Source: Phycisphaerae bacterium
Lineage (GTDB): Bacteria > Planctomycetota > Phycisphaerae > WQYP01
Direction of reading: 5' to 3'
Assembly: GCA_051955985.1 (NCBI GenBank)
Contig: JBQCGD010000071.1
Span: 27,036 to 91,035 of the forward strand
Length of the DNA: 64,000 nucleotides
Below are positions 27,887-45,982 of the stretch, one piece after another. The notes below the pieces were generated by a model that saw nothing but the letters and a program-made list of their open reading frames with translations, was not told where the DNA came from and ran no database searches. How positions within the stretch are numbered: position 1 is the first letter of the stretch; every line of letters starts with the position of its first letter. A program made the position numbers and the translations under genes.

Positions 27887-27947
27887 GGCCACGAAAGACA
27901 CGAAGGGCACGAAATTGTTTCAGGGTGTGGAGCGGTTTCGTGTCGGA
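27887..27947. repeat. family-A repeat (GCCACGAAAGACACGAAGGGCACGAAATTGTTT...)
   Basis: Intergenic parB/rbsK; shares GCCACGAAAGACAC...CACGAAATT core with copies at 32541 and 37518; internal inverted repeat GACACGAAA...TTTCGTGTC. Confidence 0.5.
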
Positions 27948-27964
27948 CTTGAGGGAGCGACTTC

Positions 27965-29092
27965 ATGGCGAAGCGGATCGCCAAACCGGTGAGCAAGCGC
28001 GCGGCGAGGCCGGCGGGCGTGGCGCGTGGCGGGGTGGTGGAGCGCGCCGGGAAGGGGGAGCATTGGGGTGGGGGGGAGGCGAAGAAGCTGGAGGCGTTGC
28101 CGACGGATGCGCCGGGGCGTGCGTCGGTGGCGGGGCCGAAGTCGGGGGTGGGGGTGGTGGGGTCGTTGAACATGGATTTGGTGGTGCGCACGGAGACGAT
28201 GCCGCGGCCGGGGGAGACGGTGCTGGGGCAGGATTTGTTGCAGACTCGGGGGGGGACGGGGGCGAACCAGGCGGCGGCGGCGGGGCGGCTGTGGAACCGG
28301 AAGACGTCGGGGGCGAAGCTGATCGGGCGGATCGGGGAGGATGTTTTCGGGGAGAACATGCTGGTGGCGTTGAACAAGTGCAAGGTGGATGTGACGTCGG
28401 TGTTGAAGACGCGCGGGTCGCCTTCGGGGACGGCGATGATCCTGGTGGATCGGCATGGGGAGAATGCGATCGTGGTGGCGAGCGGGGCGAATCGGCAGTT
28501 GTCGGCGACGGATTTATTGGCGGAGCGGAAGACGATCGAGACGTCGGTGGTGCTGACGGCGCAGCTGGAGGTGCCGCACGATACGGTGGCGTGTGCATTT
28601 GCGTTGGCGCGGCGGTCGAATGTGTTGACGATTCTGGATCCAGCGCCGGCGCCTGCGGAGGGGTTGCCGGAGTCGTTGTATCATGTAGATATCTTGACAC
28701 CTAACCAGATGGAGGCGCAGATCCTGACGGGGATGCCGGTGCGGAATTTGGAGGAGGCGCGGCGTGCGGCGGAGCGGTTCTTGATTCGGGGGACGCGGAT
28801 CGTTGTGATGAAGATGGGGTCGCAGGGGGCGGCGATTGTGCAGAAGGATGAGCGCGGGGTGGAGACGGTGGTGCAGCATGTGACGGGGTATCGGATTCAG
28901 CCGGTGGACACGACGGCGGCGGGGGATGCGTTCACGGGGGCGCTGGCGGTGGGGCTGGCGGAGGGGATGCCGCTGGCGGCGGCGGTGAAGTTTGCGAATG
29001 CGGCGGGGGCGCTGGCGTGTTTGAAGCAGGGGGCGATGGGGGCGATACCGGGGCGCGCGGAGGTGGAGGGGTTTATGGCGGAGAGGGCGTGA
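27965..29092 (+). CDS. rbsK: ribokinase (PfkB family) with about 60-aa basic N-terminal extension
   Basis: VVGSLNMDLVV, GGTGANQAAAAGRL, C-terminal DTTAAGDAFTGALAVG; GAGGGA RBS before ATG 27965. Confidence 0.7.
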   Translation: MAKRIAKPVSKRAARPAGVARGGVVERAGKGEHWGGGEAKKLEALPTDAPGRASVAGPKSGVGVVGSLNMDLVVRTETMPRPGETVLGQDLLQTRGGTGANQAAAAGRLWNRKTSGAKLIGRIGEDVFGENMLVALNKCKVDVTSVLKTRGSPSGTAMILVDRHGENAIVVASGANRQLSATDLLAERKTIETSVVLTAQLEVPHDTVACAFALARRSNVLTILDPAPAPAEGLPESLYHVDILTPNQMEAQILTGMPVRNLEEARRAAERFLIRGTRIVVMKMGSQGAAIVQKDERGVETVVQHVTGYRIQPVDTTAAGDAFTGALAVGLAEGMPLAAAVKFANAAGALACLKQGAMGAIPGRAEVEGFMAERA

Positions 29093-29094
29093 AT

Positions 29095-29152
29095 CCCCCC
29101 CCGACGACGACGTAAACACGAAGGGATGAAGAGATGAAGGGACACGAAGGGG
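29095..29152. repeat. family-B repeat (CCCCCGACGACGACGTAAACACGAAGGGATGAAGAGATGAAGGGACACGAAGGG)
   Basis: Directly after rbsK stop; related to copy at 45927 and shares GAAGGGA/CACGAAG modules with family A. Confidence 0.45.
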
Positions 29153-29200
29153 GTGGGAGGGGGCTTGCTGTTGTTGGCGGGGGGTTCGACTGTTGTGCGA

Positions 29201-29238
29201 GAGGTGCCCGCGTCGCCTGCGGGCGACGGGCGTTGGGG
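29201..29238. repeat. family-C GC-rich palindromic repeat GAGGTGCCCGCGTCGCCTGCGGGCGACGGGCGTTGGGG (copy 1)
   Basis: Contains hairpin GTCGCC-TGCG-GGCGAC; three copies within 1.5 kb. Confidence 0.5.
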
Positions 29239-29266
29239 ATTGGGGTGCTTATCGTTCCTTATTTTG

Positions 29267-29515
29267 CTAGCTCCCGGGTGTATTCCTCAGGCCGACAGCG
29301 CCAATGATGAGCAGGAGAATATTCAGGAGGGCATTCGAACAAGCGACGGCGATGAGGAGGAAGGTGATACGCCTCGCGATGTTGCGCCAGGTGCGTTTGG
29401 TCGGGGCGATTGCCGCTATGCATACAAAGGCTAATTCTCCGATGACGGCCATGTTGCTGACATGGGGCGTTCCCCAGAACATCCAGTAGGGCTTGCATAG
29501 ATCGAGCCACCACAT
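29267..29515 (-). CDS. small membrane protein (low-GC islet)
   Basis: 82 aa, two TM helices, locally AT-richer DNA; weak RBS. Confidence 0.3.
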   Translation of the reverse strand: MWWLDLCKPYWMFWGTPHVSNMAVIGELAFVCIAAIAPTKRTWRNIARRITFLLIAVACSNALLNILLLIIGAVGLRNTPGS

Positions 29516-29775
29516 CAGGTTTGGTCCCTTGTAGAAGAGCTTGAGAGCGAAGCGCTCTGAAGGTTGGGGTGATTCTTTCCGTCCATGGGAAGTGTTGGGG
29601 CTGACCCTACGTCGGGAGCAGTTGCAAGTTCGAGGATAAAACTGTGGCGGGGTGCGTTGACGTTTTGCGGAAAATTCGGGGGGCGACTTGCAGGTGGGAG
29701 AGTCCATGATCCCCACCCCATGGAAGGGGTGGGCTTGTTCTCTAACAAGGTTTAGGCACCCTCGGTGGTCTAAGC

Positions 29776-29810
29776 GTGCCCGCGTCGCCTGCGGGCGACG
29801 GGCGTTGGGG
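29776..29810. repeat. family-C repeat copy 2
   Basis: GTGCCCGCGTCGCCTGCGGGCGACGGGCGTTGGGG. Confidence 0.5.
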
Positions 29811-29870
29811 TTTGTGCGTGGCGGAGGGGGTGGGAATCGGAATAATGGAGGGGAATGAGAAGGAGGTGTT

Positions 29871-30101
29871 ATGCTGGCGGAAGTGTTTGGGTTGGTGGGG
29901 GTGGTGATGGTGGTGTTGACGGGGATCGTCCACATCCTTTTAGCGATGGGTGTGTGGATGGATGCGCATGCGCTGGGGAAAGAAGGGCGGCGGGTGTATC
30001 TGCTTCCGGCGCCGTTGTGGGGGTTGACGACGCTGGTGATGGGGTTGGTGGGGGCGGCGGTGTATTGGGGGATGAATCGGTCGACGTTTCGGCGGGATTG
30101 A
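29871..30101 (+). CDS. small two-TM membrane protein
   Basis: AAGGAGG RBS 7 nt upstream of ATG; 76 aa, two hydrophobic helices. Confidence 0.4.
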   Translation: MLAEVFGLVGVVMVVLTGIVHILLAMGVWMDAHALGKEGRRVYLLPAPLWGLTTLVMGLVGAAVYWGMNRSTFRRD

Positions 30102-30210
30102 ATGCGGGAGATGTTTGTTTTTGAGGATGGGTCGCGCGTGGAATGTCCGTGGCCCTGCGCCGCCCGAGGCGGCGGGCATTGTCGGGGAGCGTGTTTTTTT
30201 GGAGCGAGAA

Positions 30211-30594
30211 ATGGTGGAAGTGTTGCGGGCGGCGTATGCGGCGTTGAATCGGGGGGATGTTGGGGCGGTGGTGGAGGTGTTGGATGCGGGGGTGGAGTGG
30301 ATTGAGCCGGCGGAGGTTGGGGGTGGGCGGCGGTTGCGGGGGGTGGAGGCGGTGACGGCGCATCTGGTGGCGGCGCGGGGGGCGTGGGCGGAGGGGGGGT
30401 GTGAGCCGGAGCGGTTTGTGGTGGCGGGGGAGCGGGTGGTGGTGGTTGTGCGGGTGCGGGTGCGGATGAAGGGGGAGACTCTGTGGCGGGAGGGGCGGGT
30501 GGTGGATGTGTATACTAGTGGCGGGGGGAAGGTGGTGGAGAAGCGGACGTTTATGGAGGAGGGGGAAGCGGTTGCGTGGGCGGGTGGGGCGTGA
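30211..30594 (+). CDS. NTF2-like (SnoaL/ketosteroid-isomerase-like) protein
   Basis: MVEVLRAAYAALNRGDVGAVVEVLDAGVEWIEP... and C-terminal beta-rich VVVVVRVRVRMKGETLWREGRVVDVYT typical of this fold. Confidence 0.45.
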   Translation: MVEVLRAAYAALNRGDVGAVVEVLDAGVEWIEPAEVGGGRRLRGVEAVTAHLVAARGAWAEGGCEPERFVVAGERVVVVVRVRVRMKGETLWREGRVVDVYTSGGGKVVEKRTFMEEGEAVAWAGGA

Positions 30595-30616
30595 GGGGCG
30601 GGTCGGGCTGTTTATG

Positions 30617-30660
30617 AGAGGTGCCCGCGTCGCCTGCGGGCGACGGGCGTCGGGCGTCGG
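30617..30660. repeat. family-C repeat copy 3
   Basis: GAGAGGTGCCCGCGTCGCCTGCGGGCGACGGGCGTCGGGCGTCGG. Confidence 0.5.
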
Positions 30661-30676
30661 GGGGAGAGGGGGTGGG

Positions 30677-31351
30677 TCAGGAGACGACGGATTGTTTTGG
30701 TTTTTGTAGGAGGGGGTCGGCGAGTTGGGCGGCGCGGAAGGCGCGGAGGCGGCGGGCGCAGGCGGGGCAGCTCATGCAGGGGAATTCGAGGTTCATCTGG
30801 CAGGACCAGCTTGCGGCGAAGGGGGCGGCCATCTGGTAGCCGAGCTCGATGACCTGCTGGTCTTCGAGGCCCATGAGGGGAGTCTTGAGGGTGAGGGGGG
30901 TTTCGGTGGAATAGAGGTCGAGGAGCTGGTTGAAGATCTGGACGAGTTCGATGTTGCGGGCGAGGGCGTCGGCTTGTTTTTGGTCGAGCTGGGCGCCCCA
31001 GATGAGGACGGAGGCGTGGATCTGGCGGGCGAAGCCGGCGCCGATGGTGAGGAGCTGGAGGTCGCGGAGGGGGATGAGGTTGGAGTAGGGGTCTGAGCCG
31101 GTGGAATGGACGACGCCGGCGGTTTCGGGGGGCCAGCTCATTTGACGGAGGTGTTGAGCGTCGATGGCCCAGGAGCGGAAGGGTTTGAAGTGGGCGACTT
31201 GTTTGTCGAAGGCGTTGGCGGCCTGGGCTTCGGGGGCGCGGGCGTCGCGGAGGTGGAGGAGGGCGATGCGGTATTCGCGGGAGGCGAGCGCGGCGGCGAC
31301 GAGGCTGTGGAGTCCGCCGGAGGAGAGGATGAGGGCGATGGCTTTGGGCAT
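30677..31351 (-). CDS. queC: 7-cyano-7-deazaguanine synthase
   Basis: PP-loop LSSGGLHS (SGGxDS), C-terminal zinc cysteines CQMNLEFPCMSCPAC. Confidence 0.75.
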   Translation of the reverse strand: MPKAIALILSSGGLHSLVAAALASREYRIALLHLRDARAPEAQAANAFDKQVAHFKPFRSWAIDAQHLRQMSWPPETAGVVHSTGSDPYSNLIPLRDLQLLTIGAGFARQIHASVLIWGAQLDQKQADALARNIELVQIFNQLLDLYSTETPLTLKTPLMGLEDQQVIELGYQMAAPFAASWSCQMNLEFPCMSCPACARRLRAFRAAQLADPLLQKPKQSVVS

Positions 31352-31533
31352 GGTGGTCCGCCTGATTTTTTGCGCGAAGTTGCAGGTCCAATAATGGGTA
31401 TCGGCGGGAGATGGGGGGGACTTGATGAACTTTATCGGGGGGTGGAGGAGGATATGTTCGCCTCGCTCCGCATCGCCCCCCCGCTGCGACGGCCGCCTGA
31501 AGGCGGAACTTCATACGGACGGAAGTCCGTACT

Positions 31534-32529
31534 TCAGCGGTCGAATGTCACGATGGTTTTGAGGCCGGCGGGGGGGTTGGCGAAGAAGGGTTCGAGCTGG
31601 TCGAGGGGGAGTCGTTTTGGGTTGGGGGGGGATTCGTCGATTTGGCGGGCGGCGGGTTGGTTGATGGCTTCGGGGAAGGGGCCGCAGCGGGAGCCGAGGA
31701 CGTTGATTTCATCGATGACGATGGGTGCGAGGTTAAGGGGCTTGTTGGCGGCGACGGTGGTTTTCATGACGAGGGTGCCGCGGGGGCGGAGGAGCTGGAG
31801 AGCGCGTTCGAAGCCTTCAGCGCGGCCGGTGCAGTCGATGACGACGTCCTGGTCGCGGGCGGTTGTGAGTTCGCGGTCGAGGAGGGTGCGGATGTTGTTG
31901 TTGGCGGCGCCGGTGCGGATGCGTTCGATGAGGGAGAGCTTGGATTCGTGTTTGCCGACGAGGGTGAGTTTGCAGCCGGTGCGGGCGAGGGTTTGGGCGA
32001 CGAGGAGGCCGAGGCGGCCGTCGCCGAGGACGGTGACCCGGGTGCGTTTTTCGATGGGGACCTGTCGGAGGATCTGGAAGGCGGCGGCGAGGGGTTCGAC
32101 GAAGACGGCTTCGTCGTTGGAGAGGTGGTCGGGGAGTGCGTGGAGGTTGCGGGTGGGGATGCGGAGGAAGTCGGCGAAGGCGCCATCGCGCCCCTGGATG
32201 CCGATGACGGAGCGGTGGAAGCAGTGGGAGGAGAGTCCGCGGTTGCACATGTCGCACTTGCCGCAGACGCAGTTGATTTCGCCGACGACGCGTTTACCGA
32301 GCCAGTGCTGGTCGTTGGGGGGTGCGCCTTTGGGGAGTGCGGTGACGGTGGCGACGAATTCGTGGCCGAGGACGCCGGTGAAGTTCATGTAGCCTTTGGC
32401 GATTTCGAGGTCGGTCTGGCAGACGCCGGCGGCGAGGATTTTGAGGAGGGCTTCACCGGGCGCGGGGATGGGGTCGGGGTGATTGCGTTGGAATTTGACG
32501 GAGGAACCGTCGAAGAGGATTGCGCGCAT
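31534..32529 (-). CDS. zinc-dependent alcohol dehydrogenase (MDR family)
   Basis: GHEFVATV, structural-zinc CVCGKCDMCNRGLSSHC, Rossmann TVLGDGRLGL. Confidence 0.75.
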   Translation of the reverse strand: MRAILFDGSSVKFQRNHPDPIPAPGEALLKILAAGVCQTDLEIAKGYMNFTGVLGHEFVATVTALPKGAPPNDQHWLGKRVVGEINCVCGKCDMCNRGLSSHCFHRSVIGIQGRDGAFADFLRIPTRNLHALPDHLSNDEAVFVEPLAAAFQILRQVPIEKRTRVTVLGDGRLGLLVAQTLARTGCKLTLVGKHESKLSLIERIRTGAANNNIRTLLDRELTTARDQDVVIDCTGRAEGFERALQLLRPRGTLVMKTTVAANKPLNLAPIVIDEINVLGSRCGPFPEAINQPAARQIDESPPNPKRLPLDQLEPFFANPPAGLKTIVTFDR

Positions 32530-32540
32530 GGTCGGGGCCT

Positions 32541-32612
32541 TTGAAGGGATTCGCAGCGGATAAATTAGCCACGAAAGACACTAAAGACACGAAATTTTTA
32601 CTGGTGGTGTGG
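32541..32612. repeat. family-A repeat (TTGAAGGGA...TAAATTAGCCACGAAAGACACTAAAGACACGAAATTTTT)
   Basis: Between ADH gene start and HEAT-lipoprotein stop. Confidence 0.5.
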
Positions 32613-32620
32613 GCGCTGGT

Positions 32621-33349: not shown

Positions 33350-33359
33350 GGTTCCTGTT

Positions 33360-34199: not shown

Positions 34200-34216
34200 A
34201 TGTGGCCTCCTTGCCG

Positions 34217-36239: not shown

Positions 36240-36360
36240 GCTGACAGGAGCAGTGCTGATCCAAGTGCACGAAAAGGAATGGGCGCCGAAGCTTGGCGTC
36301 TTTTGGGGGTTTGGATTAACATCAGCACTCCATCTTTATGCTTCGAATTAGAGGGTCCTC

Positions 36361-37497
36361 ATGAAAGTTCTGATCAATCGCGCCGCGCTGGTGGAAGCCC
36401 TCGGCCTTGCTTCTTCTGTGGTTCTTTCGCGGACGCCGAAGCCGGTGTTGACGTGTGTGAAGCTGGTGGCGGGGACGGGGGCGGGCGGGACGGGGGCGAA
36501 GACGCTGACGGTGGTGGCGACGGACATGGAGCTGGCGCTGCAATACACGCTGACGCAGGTGGATATTGCGACGCCGGGGGTTGCGTTGATTCCGGCGGGG
36601 AAGCTTTCGGAGATTGTGAACAATTCGCCGGACGATACGCTGACGCTGGACACGAACCAGGACACGACAGCGATCAAGGGGTCGGATGCGCAGTACAAGG
36701 TGTTCGGGTACAACCCGGAGGAATTTCCGCCGGTGTCGTCGTTTGACGGGTCGCCGGACTTTTCGCTGACGGCGGGGAGCCTGCGGCAGCTGCTGGACCG
36801 GACGCGGTTTGCGGCGGCGCGCGAGATGACGCGGTATGCGATCAACGGCGTGCTGTTTGAGAAGAAGGGGAAGAAGCTGTCGCTGGTGGCGACGGACGGG
36901 CACCGGCTGGCACAGACGAAGGATGACACGATTTCGGAAGGGGGGAAGGATGTGTCGGCGGTGGTGCCGATCAAGGCAATCAACCTGATTGAGCGGCTGC
37001 TGACGGATCCGGAGCAGACGGTGTCGCTGCAGTTCAAGGAAAACAAGCTGTTTGTGCAGATCAGCTCGGAGACGGGGGGCGTGAGTGCGACGATGTCGAC
37101 ATCGCTGGTGGAGGGGACGTTCCCGCCGTACGGGGATGTGATTCCGAAGGATTCGGACAAGAAGGTGACGTTGAACCGGGAGCGGTTTTTCTCGGCGGTG
37201 CGGCGTGCGGCGTTGCTCACGAACGAGGAATCGAAGGGGGTGCGGCTGGCGTTTTCGAGCGGGACGTTGTCGATTTCTTCGCGGGCGCCGGAGATGGGCG
37301 AAGCGAAGATTGATCTGCCGATCGAATATGCAGGGGATGCGATTGAGATCGGGTTCAATCCGACGTATCTGCTGGACGCGTTGAAGGTGGCGGATCAGGA
37401 GACGGTGACGTTTGAGATGAAGACGCCGAACAAGCCGGGGCTGCTCAAAAGCGGTCCGGGGTTCTTGTATGTGGTGATGCCGGTGAATCTCAGCTGA
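36361..37497 (+). CDS. dnaN: DNA polymerase III beta sliding clamp
   Basis: MKVLINRAALVEALGL...three-domain clamp pattern, about 378 aa. Confidence 0.85.
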   Translation: MKVLINRAALVEALGLASSVVLSRTPKPVLTCVKLVAGTGAGGTGAKTLTVVATDMELALQYTLTQVDIATPGVALIPAGKLSEIVNNSPDDTLTLDTNQDTTAIKGSDAQYKVFGYNPEEFPPVSSFDGSPDFSLTAGSLRQLLDRTRFAAAREMTRYAINGVLFEKKGKKLSLVATDGHRLAQTKDDTISEGGKDVSAVVPIKAINLIERLLTDPEQTVSLQFKENKLFVQISSETGGVSATMSTSLVEGTFPPYGDVIPKDSDKKVTLNRERFFSAVRRAALLTNEESKGVRLAFSSGTLSISSRAPEMGEAKIDLPIEYAGDAIEIGFNPTYLLDALKVADQETVTFEMKTPNKPGLLKSGPGFLYVVMPVNLS

Positions 37498-37517
37498 GTT
37501 AGTGTGTTTTCCGGCTC

Positions 37518-37580
37518 ATTGAAGGGACGTAAATGAGCCACGAAAGACACTAAAGACACGAAATTGTTTTACGTTTTTTT
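37518..37580. repeat. family-A repeat (TTGAAGGGACGTAAATGAGCCACGAAAGACACTAAAGACACGAAATTGTTTT)
   Basis: Between dnaN and dciA; 37/38 identical to copy at 32563..32600. Confidence 0.5.
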
Positions 37581-37611
37581 GGCCTTTTGACGTGCAGATG
37601 CGGCTGTCTGC

Positions 37612-38082
37612 ATGATCGTGGGTTTTATGCCTCCCCGCAAAAAGAATAACGGCCAGAAGCCGGCCGCGCGCTCGAACGCGCCTTCGCCTGAGAACATCTC
37701 AAACCTGGAGATGCGGGGGGATCGGCTGAAGGTGTTTTCGCTGCAGACCCTGCTGACGAACAAGAAGAGCAAGGAGACGCGGGAGACTGCGAAGCTGGGG
37801 GAGGTGTTGTTGCCGTGGTTTGAGAAGATGGTGGAGAAGCCGGCAGAGAAGATGGAGGGGGTGCTGGAGCTGTGGATGGAGCTGGCGCCGCCAAATCTGA
37901 AGGAGCGTGCGCGGCTGGTGAGTTTTCAGCGGGGGACGCTGACGATCGCGGTGGAGTCGGCGACGGTGCGGGCGGAGCTGGATGGGCAGTTGCGGCAGGG
38001 GCTTTTGCGGAAGCTGCAGATGGGGTCGAAGGGGGCGATTTTTCGTATCAAGACATCGGTGCAGCCCTTACGGGAGATGTGA
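37612..38082 (+). CDS. dciA: DUF721 family protein, candidate DciA-type helicase loader
   Basis: C-terminal LELWMELAPPNLKERARLVSFQRGTLTIAVESATVRAELDGQLRQGLLRKL matches DUF721 hydrophobic pattern; immediately downstream of dnaN. Confidence 0.5.
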   Translation: MIVGFMPPRKKNNGQKPAARSNAPSPENISNLEMRGDRLKVFSLQTLLTNKKSKETRETAKLGEVLLPWFEKMVEKPAEKMEGVLELWMELAPPNLKERARLVSFQRGTLTIAVESATVRAELDGQLRQGLLRKLQMGSKGAIFRIKTSVQPLREM

Positions 38083-38089
38083 GCTTCTC

Positions 38090-38420
38090 GACAAGTTATC
38101 CACATGAGTGGTTATGAACTTGCCGTCCAGTTCCCTTCCGGGGTTTTAAGATAATGTTTTAAAAGAGAATAGTCTTCGTAAAGAGGCCTGTCGGCATGTG
38201 GATAACGGGGCCTGCTGTTCGTAAGACATTGCCAGGTATCAAGTTGCAGATGATCAGTTGATGATGGGCAGGTGCAGAAGCTGTCACTGGCGTGTCGCTG
38301 GGGGCTGTTTTTGGGCTCATAATGATGACAATTTCACTGTTGGCGGGGTTCATGGCGGGGGACTTGCGGGGGTGCGCTGTTTCGCGCCAGCAGCTCTCGA
38401 AAAGTTATCCACTGCGGACT
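38090..38420. other. candidate replication origin (oriC): DnaA boxes plus AT-rich tract
   Basis: TTATCCACA at 38096..38104, TGTGGATAA at 38197..38205, TTATCCACT at 38405..38413; AT-rich 38141..38180; 497-bp convergent intergenic gap after dnaN-dciA. Confidence 0.45.
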
Positions 38421-38579
38421 CACAATCGGCGCGACAAGGGGGGAAGGGGCGATGAACGGGTAAGTTACGGGGGTTTTGACGGGCGGGCATTTTGCCTGAT
38501 TGGGGGAGCGGAGCGAGCGCGAGGGGCGTCCTGAATCCCCACGCGGTGGGAGGCGTGGGCTTGGGGAGGGTGGGGAAGC

Positions 38580-39509
38580 TCAGGAGCGGTGTTCCCAGCC
38601 GGCGCGGGGCCAGGGATGTGGGCGGCTGTCGGGGTCGATTAGTTGGAGGGCGTGGTCGGCGGTGATGGTGCCGATGGCGGTGAGGGGGATGTCGGAGATG
38701 CCGATGATTGCGGGGGTTGCGTCGGGGTCGAGGGCGAAGAGGAGTTCGTAGTCTTCGCCGTCGGCAAGGGCGTGGAAGCCGGCGGGGAGGGAATCTTTTT
38801 TGGAGAGGGTCCAGGCATCTTCGTGGATGGGGAGCTGGGCGGTGTGGATCTGGGCGCCGACGTTGGAGGCGTTGCAGAGGCGGGGGAGGTCCTGGGCGAG
38901 GCCGTCGGAGAGGTCCATCATGGCGTGGAGGGCGGGGCCGGCGGCTTTGGCCAATTTTTGGGCGAGGTCGATGCGCGGTTTGAAGGCAAGGTGGCGGCCC
39001 AGAAGGGATCCGCCGAGAGCGCCGGAAACGAAGAGGGTGTCACCGGGCTTTGCGCCGCTGCGGGTGATGAGGTGTTGGCCCGTCGGAATGCGGCCGAGGG
39101 CGGAGACGGTGATGGCGAGGCGTTGATCCCAGATGCTCGTGTCGCCGCCGACGAGGGGGCAGTTCAATGCGGCGCCGGCGGCCTGGCAGGCGAGGAATAG
39201 TTCCTTGGCGAACTCTTCGCCGGAGCCGGGGCCTTCGTTGGGGAGGGCGACGGAGATCATGAGGGCGGCGGGGAGGCAGGCCATGGCGGCGCAGTCGGAG
39301 AGGCAGCGGTTGACGGCCTTGGTGCCGGCCTGCGCGGCGGAATGGTGCCGAAGGTCGAAGTGGACCTGGTCGAGGCATTGATCGATTTTGAGGATGGCGA
39401 GGGAGGGGGCGATGTCGACGGCGGCCATGTCGTCGCCGATGTTGAGTTTCACCGCAGGGTGTTGCGGGGTGTTTTGGCGGATCCAGGAGAGGAAGTCGTT
39501 TTCGCGCAT
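38580..39509 (-). CDS. thiL: thiamine-monophosphate kinase
   Basis: AIR-synthase-related fold (IGDDMAAVD..., GGDTS...); start at ATG 39509. Confidence 0.7.
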   Translation of the reverse strand: MRENDFLSWIRQNTPQHPAVKLNIGDDMAAVDIAPSLAILKIDQCLDQVHFDLRHHSAAQAGTKAVNRCLSDCAAMACLPAALMISVALPNEGPGSGEEFAKELFLACQAAGAALNCPLVGGDTSIWDQRLAITVSALGRIPTGQHLITRSGAKPGDTLFVSGALGGSLLGRHLAFKPRIDLAQKLAKAAGPALHAMMDLSDGLAQDLPRLCNASNVGAQIHTAQLPIHEDAWTLSKKDSLPAGFHALADGEDYELLFALDPDATPAIIGISDIPLTAIGTITADHALQLIDPDSRPHPWPRAGWEHRS

Positions 39510-39550
39510 GGGGCACGCGGTGGATGGAGGAATGGTTCGATGCGACACGA

Positions 39551-39586
39551 AAAATTTTAGCCGACGGGGGCGTCGGCTCCACGTTA
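39551..39586 (-). terminator. intrinsic terminator of pyc (family-E hairpin + U-run)
   Basis: On minus strand: TAA-CGUGGA-GCCGACG-CCCCC-GUCGGC-UAAAAUUUUU. Confidence 0.55.
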
Positions 39587-42500
39587 TTCGATTTCGATGA
39601 GGAGGTCGCCGGCGGCGACGAGGGTGCCGGGTTGGACGTCGATTTTGGCGATTTTGCCTTCGCGAGGGGAGTAGACGGCGGTTTCCATTTTCATGGCTTC
39701 GATGGAGAGGAGTTTAGCGCCCTTAGTGATGGTTTGGCCGAGGCTTACGCTGACGGCGGTGACTTTGCCGGGCATGGGGGCGCCGACGTGCTTGGGGTTC
39801 ATGCTGTCGGCCTTGGGGCGTTCGACTTTGGTTATAACTCGTTTGCGGTCAGGGACTTTGACTTCGCGGGGTTGGCCGTTGAGTTCGAAGAAGACGGTGA
39901 CCATGCCGTCGGGGTCGGGGTCGCCGACGGTGAGGAAGCGGACGAGGATGGTTTTGCCGGGCTCGATCTCGATGGGGATTTCCTGGTAGGGCTGTAACCC
40001 GTAGAAAAATGCGGTAGTTGGGATATTGGCGACGTCGCCGTAGTGTTTGCGGAAGCGTTCGAATTCGAGGAAGACCTGGGGGTACATGAGGTAGCTGGCG
40101 AGGTCGGTGTCGGAGGCGTCGCGGTGGATTTTTTCGCTCAATTCTGAACGGGTTTTGTCGAGATTTACCTTGGAAAGAGTCGCTCCGGGACGGTTTTTGA
40201 GCGGTTTTTCCTTGCCGAGGACAATTTTCTGGAGTTGTTTGGGGAATCCGCCGGTGGGCTGGCCGATGTCGCCGCGGAAGAATTCGACGACGGACTTGGG
40301 GAAGGCGAGGTGGCGGTCGGGGTCGAGGATGTCGGCGGGTTTGAGGTTGTTGGTGACCATGAAGAGGGCCATGTCGCCGACGATCTTGGAGGAGGGGGTG
40401 ACCTTGACGATGTCGCCGAAGAGCTGGTTGGCGTCGGCGTAGGCTTTTTCGACGTCGGGCCAGCGGGACTCGAGGCCGAGGGACTTGGCCTGGACGCGGA
40501 GGTTGGTGTACTGGCCGCCGGGCATTTCGTGCTGGTAGACGGAGGCGGTGGGGGCGAGCATGCCTTCTTCGAAGGGGGAGTAGAATCGGCGGACGGCTTC
40601 CCAGTAGTCGGAGTAGCGGGAGAGGGATTCGTCGGAGAGGCCGGTGTCGCGCGGGGTGTTGTGGAGAGCGGCGACGACGGCGTTCATGTTGGGCTGGGAG
40701 GTCATGCCGGACATGGAGGAGACGGCGCAGTCGACGATATTCACGCCGGCTTCGGCGGCCATGAGGTAAGCGCCGCCCTGGATGCCGGCGGTGTCGTGGG
40801 TGTGGAAGTGGATGGGGATGCCGACTTCGTCACGGAGGGCCTTGACGAGTTTGCGTGCGGCGAGGGGCTTGAGGAGGCCGGCCATGTCCTTGATGGCGAG
40901 GATGTGGGTGCCCATGCGTTCGAGTTCTTTGGCGAGTTTGACGTAGTAAGTGAGGGAGTACTTGTCGCGCTTGGGGTTGAGGATGTCGCCGGTGTAGCAG
41001 ATGGCGGCTTCGCAAAGGGCGTCGGTTTCGAGGACGGCTTCGATGGCGACCTTCATGTTCTCGGTCCAGTTGAGCGAGTCGAAGATGCGGAAGACATCCA
41101 TGCCGTGGGCGGCGGCGAGCTTGGCGAATTCCCTGACGACGTTGTCAGGGTAGTTGGTGTAGCCGAGGGCGTTGGAAGCGCGGAAGAGCATCTGGAAGAG
41201 GATGTTGGGGATTTCCTTGCGGAGCTGGGCGAGGCGTTCCCAGGGGTCTTCGCTGAGGAAGCGGAGGGCGGTATCGAAGGTGGCGCCGCCCCACATTTCG
41301 AGGGAGAAGAGTTGGGGGAGGTTGTGGGAGACGAAGGGTGCGGCGTTGAGCATGTCGATGGTGCGGACGCGCGTGGCGAGGAGGGACTGGTGGGCATCGC
41401 GCATGGTGGTGTCGGTGATGAGGAGTTTCTTTTGTTTGAGGACCCAGTCGGCGAATTTTTTGGGGCCGAGCTCTATCAGTTTGGTGCGGGTGCCGGGGGG
41501 GATCTGGTCAGCGCGGCCGATGGGGAGGAGGGGCGGGGGGGTCATGACGGAGAGGTCGGGTTTCTTTTTGATTTCGGGGCGGCTGTTGACGATGACATCG
41601 GCGAGGTAGGTGAGGAGGCGTGTGGCGCGGTCGCGGCGCTGGTGGAATTTGAAGAGGGCGGGGGTGGTGTCGATGAAGGTGGTGGTGGCTTTGCCGCTGT
41701 GGAAGTCGGGGTGGGCGACGAGGTTCTGGAGGAAGGGGATATTGGTTTTGACGCCGCGGATGCGGAACTCGGCGAGAGCGCGCTGGGTACGGGCGATGAC
41801 TTCCTCGAAGGTGCTGCCGAAGCAGGTGAGTTTGACGAGGAGGGAGTCGAAGTAGGGGGTGATCATGGCGCCGGAGTAGGCGGTGCCGCCGTCGAGGCGG
41901 ACGCCGTAGCCGGCGGGGGAACGGTAGGAGGTGATGCGGCCGTAGTCTGGGGTGAAGCCGTTGGCGGGGTCTTCGGAGGTGATGCGGGACTGGAGGGCGA
42001 CGCCGCGGAAGGTGAGGTTCTGCTGGCGTGGGAGGTTCATGGGGGCATCGTGGAGGTTGTATCCCTGGGCGACGCGGATCTGGGATTTGACGAGGTCGAT
42101 GCCGGTGATGAGTTCGGTGACGGTGTGTTCGACCTGGATGCGGGGGTTGACCTCGATGAAGAAGAATTCGTTGGTTTCGGCATCGACGAGGAATTCGACG
42201 GTGCCGGCGTTGCGGTAGTGGACCTGGCGGCCGATTTTGAGGGCGGCCTCGCAGATTTTCTGGCGGACGCCGAAGGGGAGGGAGACGGCGGGAGCGAGTT
42301 CGACGACTTTCTGGTGGCGGCGTTGGATGGTGCAGTCGCGTTCGAAGAGGTGGAGGAGGTTGCCGTGGGAATCGCCGAGGAGCTGGACTTCGATGTGTTT
42401 GGCGCGTTGGATGAAGCGTTCGAGGAAGACTTCGCCCTTGCCGAAGGCAGCGCCGGCTTCACGGGAGGCCTCGGCGAGTTTGTCCTGGAGTTCGGAGATT

Positions 42501-43018
42501 TCGCGGACGACGCGCATGCCGCGGCCGCCGCCACCGTGAGCGGCCTTGATGATGAGGGGGAATCCGATGCGTTTGGCTTCGCGTTGGACATCTTTCCAGT
42601 CGGAGACGGCGTCGTGGGTGCCGGGGACGATATCGACGCCGGCGGCGTCAGCGATTTTGCGGGCGGCGGTTTTGTCGCCGAATCCGCGGAGCATTTCGGG
42701 GGTGGGTCCGACGAAGGTGATGCCGGCGTCGGCGCAGGCCTGGGCGAAGTCGGCATTTTCGGAGAGGAAGCCGTAGCCGGGGTGGATGAATTCGACGCCG
42801 GTTTCCTTGGCGATCTGGATGATGGCGGGGATGTTGAGGTAGTTTTTGACGGGGGCGTCCGGGCCGCCGACCTGGTAGGCTTCGTCGGCCTTGAAGCGGT
42901 GGAGGGAGTAGCGGTCTTCGTGGGAGTAGATGGCGACGGTGCGGAAGCCGAGCTCGGTGGCGGCGCGCATGACGCGGATGGCGATTTCGGAGCGGTTGGC
43001 GACGAGTAATTTTTTCAT
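39584..43018 (-). CDS. pyc: pyruvate carboxylase
   Basis: N-terminal biotin carboxylase (MKKLLVANRSEIAIRVMRAA...), central carboxyltransferase, C-terminal biotinyl domain with EAMKME. Confidence 0.9.
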   Translation of the reverse strand: MKKLLVANRSEIAIRVMRAATELGFRTVAIYSHEDRYSLHRFKADEAYQVGGPDAPVKNYLNIPAIIQIAKETGVEFIHPGYGFLSENADFAQACADAGITFVGPTPEMLRGFGDKTAARKIADAAGVDIVPGTHDAVSDWKDVQREAKRIGFPLIIKAAHGGGGRGMRVVREISELQDKLAEASREAGAAFGKGEVFLERFIQRAKHIEVQLLGDSHGNLLHLFERDCTIQRRHQKVVELAPAVSLPFGVRQKICEAALKIGRQVHYRNAGTVEFLVDAETNEFFFIEVNPRIQVEHTVTELITGIDLVKSQIRVAQGYNLHDAPMNLPRQQNLTFRGVALQSRITSEDPANGFTPDYGRITSYRSPAGYGVRLDGGTAYSGAMITPYFDSLLVKLTCFGSTFEEVIARTQRALAEFRIRGVKTNIPFLQNLVAHPDFHSGKATTTFIDTTPALFKFHQRRDRATRLLTYLADVIVNSRPEIKKKPDLSVMTPPPLLPIGRADQIPPGTRTKLIELGPKKFADWVLKQKKLLITDTTMRDAHQSLLATRVRTIDMLNAAPFVSHNLPQLFSLEMWGGATFDTALRFLSEDPWERLAQLRKEIPNILFQMLFRASNALGYTNYPDNVVREFAKLAAAHGMDVFRIFDSLNWTENMKVAIEAVLETDALCEAAICYTGDILNPKRDKYSLTYYVKLAKELERMGTHILAIKDMAGLLKPLAARKLVKALRDEVGIPIHFHTHDTAGIQGGAYLMAAEAGVNIVDCAVSSMSGMTSQPNMNAVVAALHNTPRDTGLSDESLSRYSDYWEAVRRFYSPFEEGMLAPTASVYQHEMPGGQYTNLRVQAKSLGLESRWPDVEKAYADANQLFGDIVKVTPSSKIVGDMALFMVTNNLKPADILDPDRHLAFPKSVVEFFRGDIGQPTGGFPKQLQKIVLGKEKPLKNRPGATLSKVNLDKTRSELSEKIHRDASDTDLASYLMYPQVFLEFERFRKHYGDVANIPTTAFFYGLQPYQEIPIEIEPGKTILVRFLTVGDPDPDGMVTVFFELNGQPREVKVPDRKRVITKVERPKADSMNPKHVGAPMPGKVTAVSVSLGQTITKGAKLLSIEAMKMETAVYSPREGKIAKIDVQPGTLVAAGDLLIEIE

Positions 43019-43126
43019 GAACGGTTCCTGCGTGGGGGGCCGGCAAAGACCCGAGAGGATACACGAATCGTGCGGGGGCGGGAAGGCGGATAGGTGTTTT
43101 TCGCGGGGTTTTTGCGGGATTGGGGG

Positions 43127-43160
43127 GATTTTCGATTTTGGATTTTCGATTTTCGATTTG
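43127..43160. repeat. GATTTTC/GATTTTG heptamer tandem repeat (x5)
   Basis: gattttcgattttggattttcgattttcgatttgg in pyc upstream region. Confidence 0.55.
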
Positions 43161-43203
43161 GGGGGTGGGAAGGGGCGCCATGTGTTTTTGGGTATCCGCG
43201 CGG

Positions 43204-43240
43204 CATGCTTCTGACCACCGAGGTTGTGGTCAGAAGCATG
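43204..43240. promoter_or_regulatory. perfect 15-bp inverted repeat CATGCTTCTGACCAC-N7-GTGGTCAGAAGCATG upstream of pyc
   Basis: Perfect palindrome arms; candidate operator or RNA hairpin. Confidence 0.4.
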
Positions 43241-43266
43241 GCACCCGGCACGAGCGACAAAGTTTG

Positions 43267-43293
43267 GCCGACGGGGGCGTCGGCCCCACTTTA
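43267..43293 (-). repeat. family-E hairpin GCCGACGGGGGCGTCGGCCCCACTTTA
   Basis: At stop of DUF2950 gene. Confidence 0.5.
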
Positions 43294-44310
43294 TTGTTGG
43301 ACGGGGGTCCAGGAGTGGTCGGGGTTGTAGGATTGGAGGGCTTTGGCTTTTTGTGTGGTTTGGGGGCCGAGGTCTTTCTGGAAGACTTTGCCCTGGTGGT
43401 TGACGATGAAGGTCATGATGCCGGACTTGCCGTAGTCGGCGGGGTAGGCGATGAGGGCGAAGCCGGCGATCATGTGGCCGTTGATAACGTAGTTGTAGGC
43501 GCCGCCGGGGGCGGCGGCGCCTTGGGATTTGAGGATGCGGTAGTAGTAGCCGTGGAAGGGCTGGGGGTTGCGCGGGGAGCCGGAGATGGGGGCGTATCCT
43601 TCGCTGGAGGCCTGTGCGACGAGGGGGCCGAAGGGGCTCGAGGGCTGATTGTCGGCGGCGGGCCAGTAGAGGCCATCCTGTTTGCCGGTGGAGGAGCGGA
43701 GGCGTTGGGCGTATTCGAGGACCTGGTCGTTGTTGTGGTCCTGCATGGCGTATTCGCGTTGGGCCTGGACGTAGGCGCGGCAGATGGAGATGGTTTCGAG
43801 CTCATCGGCGCCGATGTGGCGGGCGAGGATTTCGTTGCGGCCGGCGTTGGTGTCGAAGAACCATTGGCCGTTGGAGGTTTTGGAGAGGGGGATGGGGAAG
43901 GGCCAGTCGTCGTTGCCGATGTGGAGGATGTCGGTGGTGGGGTTTTGCTGTTCGAGGGCGGCTTTTTCGAGGGTTTTCCGGGCGAAGGATTGGTAGTTGT
44001 TGGCGTCGGTGACGGGGTCGCCGGTGACGAGGTCGTGGGCGTCCTTGCCGAAGATTGCCTGGAGGTTGGCGTGGTCGTTTGATTGGACGGCGGAGAGGAG
44101 TGCGACGACGGCGGCGTCGGGGGTGGGGAAGGTTTGCTGGCCGGCGGCGGGGGCTCCGGGCTGGCCGTGGTGTTCCGGGGTGGAGGAGAGGTTTTGCGGG
44201 GAATTCGCATCGTCGCGGGCGTTGGCGCCGTGGGAGGCGCAGCCGGCGAGGACCAGGGATCCGGCGAGGGCGAAGGCGGCGACGGGGAGGTGGAAGGGGC
44301 GAGCGGGCAT
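43291..44310 (-). CDS. DUF2950-like lipoprotein
   Basis: Lipobox LAGCAS; C-terminal HGYYYRILKSQG...YNYVINGHMIAGFALIAYPADYGKSGIMTFIVNHQGKVFQKDLG; ATG 44310; 5' part of track ORF is artefact. Confidence 0.55.
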   Translation of the reverse strand: MPARPFHLPVAAFALAGSLVLAGCASHGANARDDANSPQNLSSTPEHHGQPGAPAAGQQTFPTPDAAVVALLSAVQSNDHANLQAIFGKDAHDLVTGDPVTDANNYQSFARKTLEKAALEQQNPTTDILHIGNDDWPFPIPLSKTSNGQWFFDTNAGRNEILARHIGADELETISICRAYVQAQREYAMQDHNNDQVLEYAQRLRSSTGKQDGLYWPAADNQPSSPFGPLVAQASSEGYAPISGSPRNPQPFHGYYYRILKSQGAAAPGGAYNYVINGHMIAGFALIAYPADYGKSGIMTFIVNHQGKVFQKDLGPQTTQKAKALQSYNPDHSWTPVQQ

Positions 44311-44350
44311 GGGGAACTCCTGCAAATGAAGGGACCGATGGTGGGGACGA

Positions 44351-45742
44351 TCAGCGGCGCATGGACTGGTGGCCGCGGCCGGCCTGGATGTTGGCGCCGC
44401 CGCCGTCGTTGTGGAAAGCGGGGGCGGGGGCGTTGTGGGGCTGGGCGGGCGCGGGGGTGGGGCGGGAGATGGGGGCGGGCGCGGGGGAAGGATGGGGGAG
44501 ACCTTCGACGGGGCGGCGGTTGTAGGCGCTGGTGGGGGGGCTGACGAAGTTGCCGCCGCGTTGGGGTTCAAAGCGTGGGGGTTGTGCGGGGCGGGATGGT
44601 TCGCTGGGGCGCGGCTGTTCGGTGGGGCGGTGCTGTTCGGGGCGTGGGGCTTCGACGGGGCGATGTTCCTGGGGGCGGGGTTGTTCGATCGGGCGATGTT
44701 CCTGCGGGCGCGGCTGTTCGATGGGGCGATGTTCTTCGGGGCGCGGGGCGGGGTGATTGGGGATGCCGATGACGGGGCGTTCGGGGGCGCGTTGGCGTTC
44801 TTCGGGGCGGTAGGGCTGGTGGACATTGAAAGCGTCGTGGTGGTTGCGATCGCCGTTGTTCCAGCCGGGGCCGCGGCGGTCGGGGGTGCGGTCGTTGCGA
44901 TGATCGCGGTCGGGGAAGTTGTGGGGGATGATAATGGGGCGTCCGGGGTTGTGGCGCCATTCGCGGAGGTGTTCATCGCGGTCGCGGCGATCGCGGTCGT
45001 GCCAGTCGCGGTCCCAGTGGACGCCTTCGTTGACGTGGTGGGCGCGCCAATCCCAGTCAAGGTTGAGCCACGGACCGATGCCGTAATGGGGACCGAAGGT
45101 GATGATGGGGCCACTGGGGTAGTAGGGGGGGCGGGAATAAACGAGGCCGGGGTCGTACTGGGGGACGTAGATGATGTTGGGCTGAGCGGGGAGGATTTCG
45201 ATGATGCCGTTGTCGTTGACGACCTGCTGCTGGGGCGTGGTGGCGAGGGTGTTGGCGGCGAGGGCTTCGCTGCGGAGCTGCTGGACGGTGTTCATGACAT
45301 CCTGGGGCTGGTTGGCGAAGGCGGCGCCGAGGGCGGCGGTCCAGTCGGGCTGGGTGGCGAGCATGTTGAGCACGGCGGGGTAGTGGAGAAGGGCCTGGAC
45401 GGAGGGGTCCCAGGGTTGGGCGGCGATATCGTCTTCGGAGGGGTTGGGGAAGTACTGGATCCATTCCTGGGCGGAGGCGATGTCCTGGGGGTAGGTGGCG
45501 GCGGCGAGAATCTGGGTAAGGAGGGGGTCGGGGTAAAGGGCGATGGGGCCGAGGAGCTGGCGGAGCTGATCGGCGGAGTAGGTGGGCACGGCGGGGGCGG
45601 TGGGGTAGGCGGGGACGGGTGGGGAGGTGTAATAGGCGCCGTTTTCCCCGGGGGTGTAGTAATAGGTCTGGGCGACGGCGGCGGAGGCGGCCAGGCCGAC
45701 GGAGGAAAGTGCGGCGATGAGCAAAGAATGTGAGCGTTTCAT
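44351..45742 (-). CDS. DUF3300-like secreted protein with Pro/His/Arg-rich repetitive C-terminus
   Basis: Signal peptide MKRSHSLLIAALSSVGLAASAAVA, GAGGTG RBS; DUF3300 genes are typically adjacent to DUF2950 genes. Confidence 0.55.
   Translation of the reverse strand: MKRSHSLLIAALSSVGLAASAAVAQTYYYTPGENGAYYTSPPVPAYPTAPAVPTYSADQLRQLLGPIALYPDPLLTQILAAATYPQDIASAQEWIQYFPNPSEDDIAAQPWDPSVQALLHYPAVLNMLATQPDWTAALGAAFANQPQDVMNTVQQLRSEALAANTLATTPQQQVVNDNGIIEILPAQPNIIYVPQYDPGLVYSRPPYYPSGPIITFGPHYGIGPWLNLDWDWRAHHVNEGVHWDRDWHDRDRRDRDEHLREWRHNPGRPIIIPHNFPDRDHRNDRTPDRRGPGWNNGDRNHHDAFNVHQPYRPEERQRAPERPVIGIPNHPAPRPEEHRPIEQPRPQEHRPIEQPRPQEHRPVEAPRPEQHRPTEQPRPSEPSRPAQPPRFEPQRGGNFVSPPTSAYNRRPVEGLPHPSPAPAPISRPTPAPAQPHNAPAPAFHNDGGGANIQAGRGHQSMRR
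44640..44760 (-). repeat. 33-nt tandem coding repeat (x4) in DUF3300 gene
   Basis: GGGCGATGTTCCTGGGGGCGGGGTTGTTCGATC-like units encoding EHRPIEQPRPQ x4. Confidence 0.6.
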
Positions 45743-45926
45743 GTTTTCACCTCGGCCAAAGGATGGGGCCTGTTTTGCAATTTGGCAAGAGCAATCCACG
45801 TGCGTGGCGCGCGTGGAGCGTCTTGATTCACTGGGAGATACGCGACGGAGGGCGGGGTGGGTCCGCAGTGGGGGGTGGATCGGTGGGTTTGCGCAGAGTG
45901 CAGTGGATCGGAAACTGATTACCACC

Positions 45927-45982
45927 GCCCCCGACGACGTAATCACGAAGAGATGAAGGGACGAAGGACCACGAAGAATGCC
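45927..45982. repeat. family-B repeat (CCCCCGACGACGTAATCACGAAGAGATGAAGGGACGAAGGACCACGAAG)
   Basis: In divergent intergenic region between DUF3300 gene and crtC-like gene. Confidence 0.45.

Follow-up and report, generated by a model that had tools for sequence, protein, structure and literature searches.

Foldback transposons of eukaryotes have inverted terminal arms that are built from short tandem sub-repeats. In bacteria, the repetitive extragenic palindromes known as REP and REPIN elements are mobilised by RAYT tyrosine transposases and carry a GTAG or CGTC tag at one end, and their families are mostly specific to a species or genus (PMC3733652). The short tandemly repeated repetitive (STRR) sequences of cyanobacteria consist of tandem heptamers in non-coding DNA, for which roles in transcript stability or translational coupling have been proposed (PMC2670836). 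Here, we describe a short repeat with CACGAAG-type units in a 64-kb stretch of DNA from a Phycisphaerae bacterium (contig JBQCGD010000071.1). This whole stretch is called the window, and positions are counted from its first letter. The repeat occurs at five loci, three of type A (A1, A2 and A3) and two of type B (B1 and B2). On balance, we regard these loci as copies of one family of miniature non-coding insertional repeats. Judging from sequence comparison, the copies form the Phycisphaerae branch of a wider family with the core tTnAAC-CACGAAGGN-CACGAAGGN-CACGAAG.

The five loci and their arm architecture

All five repeat loci reported in a preliminary description of the window were recovered with the same coordinates, far above chance expectation. 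The sequence GCCACGAAAGACAC occurs exactly three times in the 64-kb window (27888, 32568 and 37537), on the + strand only. With up to two mismatches, six matches were found against 0.62 expected, a number that was reached in 0 of 100 shuffles. Local alignment gave scores of 70 for A3 versus A2, 51 for A3 versus A1, and 62 for B1 versus B2, whereas the best unrelated 100-nt window on either strand scored 23 (mean 13.3, sd 3.8). Hence, the copy-to-copy scores lie 9-15 standard deviations above the background of the window. The core identity between A2 and A3, earlier given as 37/38, proved to be ~35/36 (one difference over TAAAT..GAAATT), so that the near-identity holds at a slightly lower figure. 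At each A locus, Tandem Repeats Finder (TRF) detected 2.8 copies of the 9-nt unit CACGAAAGA; the units that it found at B1 and B2 are 8 nt long. Isolated short modules were not significant, because the + strand is very purine- and G-rich. In the window, CACGAARG yielded eight matches against 4.4 expected and GATGAAGGGAC three against 1.45 expected, while GATGAAG occurs 26 times on the G-rich + strand. Alignment scores, exact-copy counts and the insertions detailed below all support a genuine dispersed intergenic repeat family.

All five copies are intergenic, and the flanking genes named earlier were likewise recognised (parB, a pfkB-family kinase, dnaN, and genes for a HEAT-repeat protein, an alcohol dehydrogenase, DciA and a DUF3300 protein). 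The copies are composed as follows.

27867..27944, + strand: A1 insertion, in the spacer from the parB stop (27843) to the ATG (27965) of the pfkB-family kinase gene
27879-27889, + strand: A1 head, GATCAATTGGC
27890-27898, 27899-27907 and 27908-27916, + strand: A1 units CACGAAAGA, CACGAAGGG and CACGAAATT
27936-27944: A1 partial inverted unit, TTTCGTGTC
29095..29163, + strand: B1, an apparently old, decayed copy, 3 nt past the pfkB stop (29090-29092), in a convergent spacer
29095-29102: B1 C-run
29103-29116: B1 head, GACGACGACGTAAA
29117-29124, 29125-29132, 29133-29140 and 29141-29150: B1 units CACGAAGG, GATGAAGA, GATGAAGG and GACACGAAGG
29151-29163: B1 G-run, able to pair with the B1 C-run
32537..32615, + strand: A2 insertion, flanked by two minus-strand genes, for the HEAT-repeat protein (stop 32621) and the alcohol dehydrogenase (start 32529)
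32541-32549, + strand: TTGAAGGGA of A2
32556-32569, + strand: A2 head, GCGGATAAATTAGC
32570-32578, 32579-32587 and 32588-32596, + strand: A2 units CACGAAAGA, CACTAAAGA and CACGAAATT
37498..37586, + strand: A3 insertion, directly 3' of the stop of dnaN (37495-37497) and ahead of the promoter-like TTGACG of dciA
37499-37512: A3 inverted partial array, TTAGTGTGTTTTCC
37513-37520 and 37532-37539: A3 stem, GGCTCATT pairing with AATGAGCC; the loop holds GAAGGGACGTA
37539-37547, 37548-37556 and 37557-37565, + strand: A3 units CACGAAAGA, CACTAAAGA and CACGAAATT, followed by a T-rich tail
37587-37616: promoter-like site of dciA, just past A3
45923..45992, + strand: B2, a decayed copy, in the divergent spacer between the DUF3300 gene (minus strand) and a gene at 46202 (+ strand)
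45923-45933 and 45981-45992: B2 closing stem, CACCGCCCCCG pairing with CCGGGGGAGGTG
45933-45943: B2 head, GACGACGTAAT
45944-45977: B2 units CACGAAGA, GATGAAGG, GACGAAGG and ACCACGAAGA

In Phycisphaerae, an arm of the element is ~45 nt long. It comprises a head, GACGnnTAAAT-nGC, which is preceded by a C-run in older copies, and three to four tandem units of 8-9 nt, each of which combines an invariant CAC with a purine tract (CACGAARGN). Arms of the window and of loci L310, L312, L003, L082, L035, L121, L123 and L104 were aligned; the consensus of the Phycisphaerae arm reads gACGnaTAAATkGC-CACGAAAGa-CACnAAAGa-CACGAAAtt. A hidden Markov model (HMM) of the arm matched A1 at 27879-27919 (E=9e-12), A2 at 32556-32598 (E=7e-12) and A3 at 37525-37568 (E=4e-11). 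It recovered no additional A copies over the 64-kb window, which is the extent covered by the copy counts for the source organism.

The A and B loci had been described as two families that use the same short modules. The common modules are real, and arm alignments unite the two groups into a single family. The B copies have the same head as the A copies (C-run, GACGACG, TAA), followed by four units of 8-9 nt, and B1, its orthologue in L310 and B2 can be aligned with each other. Furthermore, two loci of another Phycisphaerae metagenome-assembled genome (MAG), L082 and L003, carry a composite of C-run, CGACGACG, TAAAT and GGCCACGAAAG that bridges the A and B forms. Complete elements are foldbacks with two inverted arms, as at L121 (7331-7416), where two facing arms make up a palindrome of ~85 nt, head included. 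The window copies are single arms with remnants of a second arm.

Sister motifs were observed beside CACGAAG arrays in L157, L126, L032, L104, L309 (3290-3320) and other loci. They have an AAC flank and three CAC-purine units of 9-10 nt (e.g. CCACGGATGAACACGGATG, CCACCGATGAACACCGATGG and CCACAAATGAACACGAATGAACACAAAT), which suggests a possible superfamily of CAC-purine triple repeats.

Insertion history and decay of the copies

We compared the dnaN neighbourhood of the window with that of four relatives, L309, L310, L311 and L312, whose DnaN proteins are 98, 97, 95 and 90% identical to that of the window, respectively. L309, L310 and L311 are syntenic with the window at a DNA identity of 80-89%. 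At the sites of A1, A2 and A3, these three relatives show clean alignment gaps of 75-90 nt, and A3 is also missing from L312. At the A2 site, only a 13-nt spacer separates the two called genes in L309 and L310. Similarly, the distance from the dnaN stop to the TTGACG region of dciA is 4-30 nt in L309-L312, versus 88 intervening nt in the window. The comparison indicates that the A copies inserted after the lineage had split from relatives of ~82% DNA identity. Copies beyond the five, for which the preliminary description had proposed a search, are present elsewhere in the relatives (L310 3-42, upstream of parB; L312 7902-7942, 13 nt past a stop codon). Moreover, a Logan short-read contig of the same organism terminates inside the A3 array, as expected for a repeat.

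The B copies have a different history. B1 has a positional orthologue in L310 (2270-2304), located directly after the pfkB stop, in which all four units are CACGAAG. No CACGAAG array was found in the counterpart of the B2 spacer in L310 and L311. The GATGAAG units of the window differ from CACGAAG units by C>G and C>T on the + strand. Of the 201 differences in dnaN between the window and a relative, 103 have C in the relative and G in the window and another 40 are C>T, against a single reverse C>G change. Likewise, 217 of the 562 differences in the minus-strand pyruvate carboxylase gene are relative-C to window-G on the + strand, versus 11 in reverse. The unit changes of the B copies thus match the C>G/C>T signature of the genome, which implies that the B copies are old and eroded and the A copies recent. 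Judging from these changes, for which the family consensus gives the direction of C>G, the B copies predate the A copies, and their CAC triplets would have turned into GAT or GAC by loss of C from the + strand. Young A copies and decayed B copies together provide an internal clock for strand-asymmetric C-to-G/T mutation pressure.

The mutation pattern of the window is, as far as can be read from these alignments, an unusual and strongly strand-asymmetric C-to-G transversion signature. Across 12000-58000, the + strand has an extreme GC skew of +0.3 to +0.45, regardless of gene strand, whereas the skew is ~0 at 4-10 kb and 58-64 kb. In the relatives with 95-98% identical DnaN, the corresponding syntenic region has a skew of just +0.07 to +0.14. 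After relative-C to window-G, the next commonest changes in the window are C>T and A>G, and third codon positions on the + strand contain 67-78% G and 6-15% C. In L312, which is another highly skewed Phycisphaerae MAG, the skew switches from -0.42 to +0.25 at ~6 kb upstream of dnaN.

The site after the pfkB stop holds different short repeats in each relative, with GGTAATT heptamers and a CCACAAATGAACACGAATGAACACAAAT array in L309 and GTGGCTC heptamers in L311. This spacer thus appears to be a recurrent landing or turnover site. Between pfkB and queC, L309 (3347-5383) and L310 (2324-4375) have a gene for a PMT_2 glycosyltransferase of 680 aa, which L311 does not have. In this position the window has ~1.5 kb of different sequence (29160-30670), with open reading frames (ORFs) that gave no Pfam match.

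A core shared across phyla and its position after stop codons

A scan of one genome per species with the pattern CACGAARGNCACNAARGNCACGAA gave at least 119 stretches; the array counts that follow were derived among the matches listed. Genes in the fetched loci were called by a simple heuristic based on ORFs and on GC content at third codon positions (GC3). The 27-base core with three CACGAAG-type units, tTnAAC-(CACGAAGGN)x3, was found in at least nine bacterial phyla and in phages. Its carriers are Planctomycetota, Verrucomicrobiota and relatives, Acidobacteriota, Chloroflexota, Gemmatimonadota, Bacteroidota, all classes of Proteobacteria, Sumerlaeota and others. The earlier suggestion of a lineage-specific element therefore had to be abandoned: across these phyla and phages the core has the same flanking AAC, palindromic partner arrangement and position after stop codons. 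A metagenome scan with the exact A-type pattern retrieved three loci only, so close relatives are rare in that collection.

The architecture of the arrays is highly regular. Exactly three units are present in 109 of the 125 genomic arrays. In the left flank of 114 arrays, position -5 is T in 70, position -2 is A in 76 and position -1 is C in 95. For 57 of the 125 genomic arrays (~46%) and 15 of 65 viral arrays, a partner in inverted orientation is found no more than 300 nt away. In contrast, two control 9-mer patterns (a reversed unit and a permuted unit) had an inverted partner in 0/43 and 0/90 cases. At least seven phyla have palindromic forms, the arms of which are 9-280 nt apart and sometimes enclose other, nested palindromes. 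The subfamilies track taxonomy: a TTATC flank is typical of Chloroflexota and an ATGGC head of Phycisphaerae, and AAAG and AAGG units likewise distinguish subfamilies.

Arrays of this kind might arise without any element, by local replication slippage in purine-rich spacers, with a likeness that stems from base composition. Tandem 9-mers are generally common and mostly form long coding arrays in the viral controls. In viral contigs, CACGAARGNCACNAARGNCACGAA matched 59 stretches, against 42 and 91 for the control patterns of similar composition. Since the controls are similarly abundant, abundance was dropped as an argument, and the case rests on architecture. Slippage would also fit the several other short tandem arrays in the window, the different repeats at the post-pfkB site and the lack of significance of the short modules alone. 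However, the copies share non-repetitive heads, which excludes pure slippage: the match of ~35/36 between A2 and A3 includes the head, and the insertions bring in head sequence besides repeats. The high alignment scores, the conserved flanking AAC, the constant number of three units and the presence of inverted partners where the controls have none also run counter to this explanation, which we consider highly improbable.

Placement relative to genes is directional. Of the 87 listed non-coding arrays, 17 have the stop of a coding-like sense ORF no more than 30 nt upstream of their 5' end, while 0 have the stop of an antisense ORF in the 30 nt past their 3' end. About 40 distinct listed arrays start 1-45 nt past the stop of a long ORF, and several of these stops fall within the conserved TAAC or TGAnC flank. 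Because the 5' flank supplies stop codons and the units have none, the post-stop bias could partly be tolerance. Real phages, recognised by portal, tape-measure and tail-assembly genes, have arrays between structural genes, on the coding strand. In a phage tail operon (L178), the array even makes up the whole 30-nt spacer between two genes (TGA cggaac ... CACGAA ATG). No excess of start codons was found just downstream of the listed arrays, and the repeats contain no promoter-like match; a role as promoter or in the 5' untranslated region (UTR) was rejected on these grounds.

This placement brings up the main rival explanation, a cis-acting RNA element that is located in 3' UTRs and intercistronic regions and selected for its action on the mRNA. 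Such an element might block 3' exonucleases, offer RNase III a site to cut, retain ribosomes after termination so that re-initiation is coupled, or influence termination itself, and its recurrence across phyla would follow from contact with a conserved machine. Comparable roles have been proposed for the cyanobacterial STRR repeats (PMC2670836). The sense orientation after stops, the completely filled spacer of the phage tail operon, the ability of many copies to form long hairpins with a partner and the cross-phylum sequence identity all speak for an RNA element. Conversely, A2 is antisense to both flanking genes and B2 lies in a divergent spacer. Listed arrays occur over convergent spacers, divergent spacers and tandem spacers in both orientations (19, 16, 16 and 13), downstream start codons are not in excess, and close relatives do not have the copy at the same genes.

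Folding provides little additional support for a function as RNA. The A1 hairpin (27906-27944) has 17 pairs as RNA, including G-U pairs, at -23.3 kcal/mol (z = -2.4). A3 folds at -24.4 kcal/mol on the + strand (z -1.7) and at -21.2 on the minus strand (z -3.4), and B2 at -29.2 kcal/mol on the minus strand (z -3.5). The five window copies fold unlike one another, and only A1, A3 and B2 beat the shuffles, while the other two copies do not. A 9-bp inverted repeat had been reported within A1 (GACACGAAA/TTTCGTGTC). The inverted repeat exists, with an exact part of only 7 bp (CACGAAA at 27908-27914 and TTTCGTG at 27936-27942), which one G.T and one G-C position extend. Because a single arm consists of three direct repeats without self-complementarity, hairpins need a second inverted arm or flanking sequence. 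In paired arms, the CACGAAG heptad is kept in both arms, and the N positions agree in 27/53 (18 expected) and 21/53 (14 expected). With the heptad kept and the free positions in agreement only slightly above chance, the sequence rather than the pairing appears to be constrained, and the hairpins are broken every 9 bp.

Hence, there is little compensatory change between arm pairs. The proposal of a small RNA family was not upheld, given the inconsistent folds, the antisense position of A2 and the lack of convincing covariation at the variable unit positions of paired arms. Against Rfam, the whole window had 0 matches at the gathering score, as had 27700-29300 (around A1 and B1) at E<=10. The defining REP tags are missing too, so that in these respects the earlier failure to recognise a described class is upheld. 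A cis-acting RNA element accounts better for the orientation bias and the cross-phylum identity, and worse for copies in antisense or divergent positions, for their absence from relatives and for the missing covariation. Overall, we think it rather unlikely.

A cross-phylum core that is placed directionally after stops needs either a promiscuous mobilisation system or contact with conserved machinery. We tentatively raise the possibility that tTnAAC-(CACGAAGGN)x3, of 27-33 nt, is a signal common to bacteria and phages that is kept by a conserved partner, and thus an undescribed class of element. The partner could be a broad-host-range, trans-acting mobilisation enzyme, or the translation-termination or RNA-decay machinery that acts after stops. 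If true, this would be an element class beyond another lineage-specific REP.

Proposed mobilisation, possible DNA binding and known systems

With moderate confidence, we interpret the repeat as a miniature insertional repeat of the foldback type, the arms of which are arrays of a recognised heptad, and which is mobilised in trans. It may spread through an enzyme that reads the repeated CACGAAG heptads rather than a base-paired stem, in the manner of REPIN/RAYT elements, miniature transposable elements with inverted repeats (MITEs) or foldback elements. All five window copies are on the G-rich strand, while many neighbouring genes are on the opposite strand. The arrays of L003, L082 and L014 are on the G-rich strand as well, and the copies of L123 and L312 are on the + strand where the skew is positive; one L121 array, on the C-rich strand, is an exception. 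This shared orientation in strongly skewed genomes makes a single-stranded DNA route possible, a suggestion that comes from the strand bias of skewed genomes alone. A sense insertion just 3' of a stop would add a U-poor purine tract to the 3' UTR or intercistronic RNA and, together with a partner arm, an interrupted long hairpin to the transcript. The consequence may be neutral, or a modest change in mRNA 3'-end stability, processing or translational coupling.

Several results weigh against mobilisation in trans. Strand bias is not general: over all phyla listed, 34 arrays are on the G-rich and 23 on the C-rich strand, which is not significant. All-against-all clustering of ORFs revealed no recurrent gene family within 900 nt of the arrays at the 119 loci listed; ABC ATPases were found in five loci, and nothing else. 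No transposase or autonomous insertion sequence (IS) with matching ends was found near any copy. A target-site duplication is not visible at the A1, A2 and A3 junctions, which are blurred by ~18% divergence of the empty sites. About half of the listed arrays, and all five window copies, are single arms, which would be poor substrates for hairpin-dependent transposition. The control patterns are as abundant in viral contigs as the motif itself. Finally, a near-identical 27-nt core across phyla is atypical of REP elements and MITEs, the families of which are normally confined to a species or lineage, and hints at constraint from conserved cell machinery instead.

The ORFs downstream of arrays were mostly spurious or unrelated, with one clear PDDEXK_3 (GxxExxY) gene. 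An expected enrichment of GxxExxY and four-helix-bundle genes just behind such arrays was not seen in the data. At L073 (5352-5801) of a Dehalococcoidia genome, an array immediately precedes a PDDEXK_3 (GxxExxY) gene (Pfam E=6.5e-42) or is read into it, and the same holds for arrays and PDDEXK_3 genes at L026 and L108 of Planctomycetaceae. Such genes may receive spurious N-terminal TKDTKGTK or HEGHEGHE extensions in annotation. A composite transposon was also rejected, as the genes between distant inverted arrays are ordinary ones (DJ-1, TauE, rhomboid and histidine-kinase). A literature search by sequence and by translated peptide found no description of the CACGAAG repeat.

The constraint on the heptad could also reflect a DNA-binding array, i.e. 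an operator-, iteron- or centromere-like site, with a role in origin-proximal chromosome organisation near parB, dnaN, dciA and a putative oriC. A protein-binding array had been proposed earlier, and we retain it as a rival. The heptad sequence rather than its pairing is kept in both arms, with free 2-nt spacers, and the unit number is nearly constant at three. The window copies, moreover, lie within 18 kb around parB, dnaN and a cluster of DnaA boxes at 38096-38413. This explanation is weakened, however, by the absence of the A copies from the same origin-proximal sites in the three relatives with 95-98% identical DnaN, which makes an origin-linked array unlikely. Elsewhere, arrays flank unrelated genes and sit inside phage structural operons. 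A site in double-stranded DNA does not easily account for an orientation bias with respect to stop codons. In B-DNA, a spacing of 9 bp does not hold sites on the same face of the helix. Known identities were also rejected: the parS sequence TGTTTCACGTGAAACA has 0 matches with up to three mismatches, and the DnaA boxes (TTATCCACA) lie outside the repeats. A DNA-binding array therefore seems quite improbable.

The 500-nt spacer past dciA (38083-38580) contains the DnaA boxes TTATCCACA at 38096 (+ strand) and 38197 (minus strand) and TTATCCACT at 38405, as well as an AT-rich stretch. It is partly conserved in the relatives, and GC skew keeps its sign there. This spacer is a candidate oriC, in a predicted order dnaN-dciA-oriC, with dnaA not beside dnaN.

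The window contains further short repeats. Other arrays of 7-nt units are located at 20669-20698, 21226-21260 with 21357-21405, 43127-43159, 53331-53361 and 55642-55669. Their units are GGTAATT, AAAACGC/AAAACAC (with an inverted copy 100 nt off), GATTTTC, GAATTCA and AATTCAG. They lie mostly in spacers of co-directional genes, and GGTAATT also follows the pfkB stop in L309. The spacers of this genome seem to be colonised by several families of short-repeat modules, many of them with CAC and purines. A hairpin of REP type is present in four copies of one orientation (16666-16706, 19408-19448, 39548-39588 and 43255-43295). On the + strand it reads GCCGACG-GGGG-CGTCGGC followed by (T/C)CCAC, and on the minus strand GTGG-AGCCGACG-CCCC-CGTCGGCT, with an 8-bp stem, a 4-nt loop and a GTAG-like tag; two of the hairpins score as terminator-like. 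In relatives, the site at 43255 has an ordinary hairpin-plus-T-run terminator and not the REP-type hairpin. Between the GATTTTC array and this hairpin, at 43160-43255, lies a near-perfect palindrome of 37 nt, catgcttctgaccaccgaggttgtggtcagaagcatg, which is missing from the spacer between the pyruvate carboxylase (PYC) and DUF2950 genes of relatives.

Small repeats between genes influence how operons are expressed and how plastic a genome is, and assemblies break at them. In annotation, a family with a core that stays almost the same in Acidobacteriota, Chloroflexota and phages ought to be masked or labelled. Moreover, the units have no stop codon in any frame and therefore extend spurious ORFs, as seen in the ORF calls here.

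The CACGAAG repeat resembles several known systems in part. Like the integron attC site, it is an imperfect palindrome directly past the stop of an ORF, in fixed orientation and with an outer AAC...GTT. However, the CACGAAG elements follow housekeeping genes (parB, dnaN), without cassette arrays, and single arms are common; R''/L'' boxes are not apparent in their sequences, although no formal attC scan was made. With STRR sequences, the repeat shares short tandem arrays of units in the 7-nt class, which are located between genes and form hairpins with an inverted array. It differs in its units of 8-9 nt with an invariant CAC, in the fixed number of three units and in its conserved, non-repetitive head. 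Furthermore, the hosts among the matches listed are at least nine other phyla and phages, and none is cyanobacterial.

The likeness to MITEs and foldback elements lies in small, non-autonomous insertions with two inverted arms of tandem sub-repeats and a variable interior of 9-280 nt. In contrast to these elements, many CACGAAG copies are single arms. No related autonomous IS or transposase was found near them, which sets them apart from MITEs. At the ~18% diverged empty sites, no target-site duplication was readable.

REP and REPIN elements are similar in that they are short, non-coding, dispersed and intergenic, mainly downstream of coding regions, and vary in presence or absence between related genomes. 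Their inverted doublets can fold into larger hairpins, as can CACGAAG arrays with a partner within 300 nt (57/125 of those listed). However, the CACGAAG arm is a triple direct repeat, whereas the REP unit is an imperfect palindrome of 20-40 bp with its own stem-loop and an 8-9-bp stem. The left flank of the CACGAAG arm is tTnAAC or GACGnnTAAAT-nGC, without a terminal GTAG or CGTC, and no gene for a RAYT (a Y1 HUH transposase) was seen beside any copy (within 900 nt at the 119 loci listed). The core is nearly identical across phyla. A genuine family of GTGG-tagged REP-type hairpins coexists with the CACGAAG copies in the same window.

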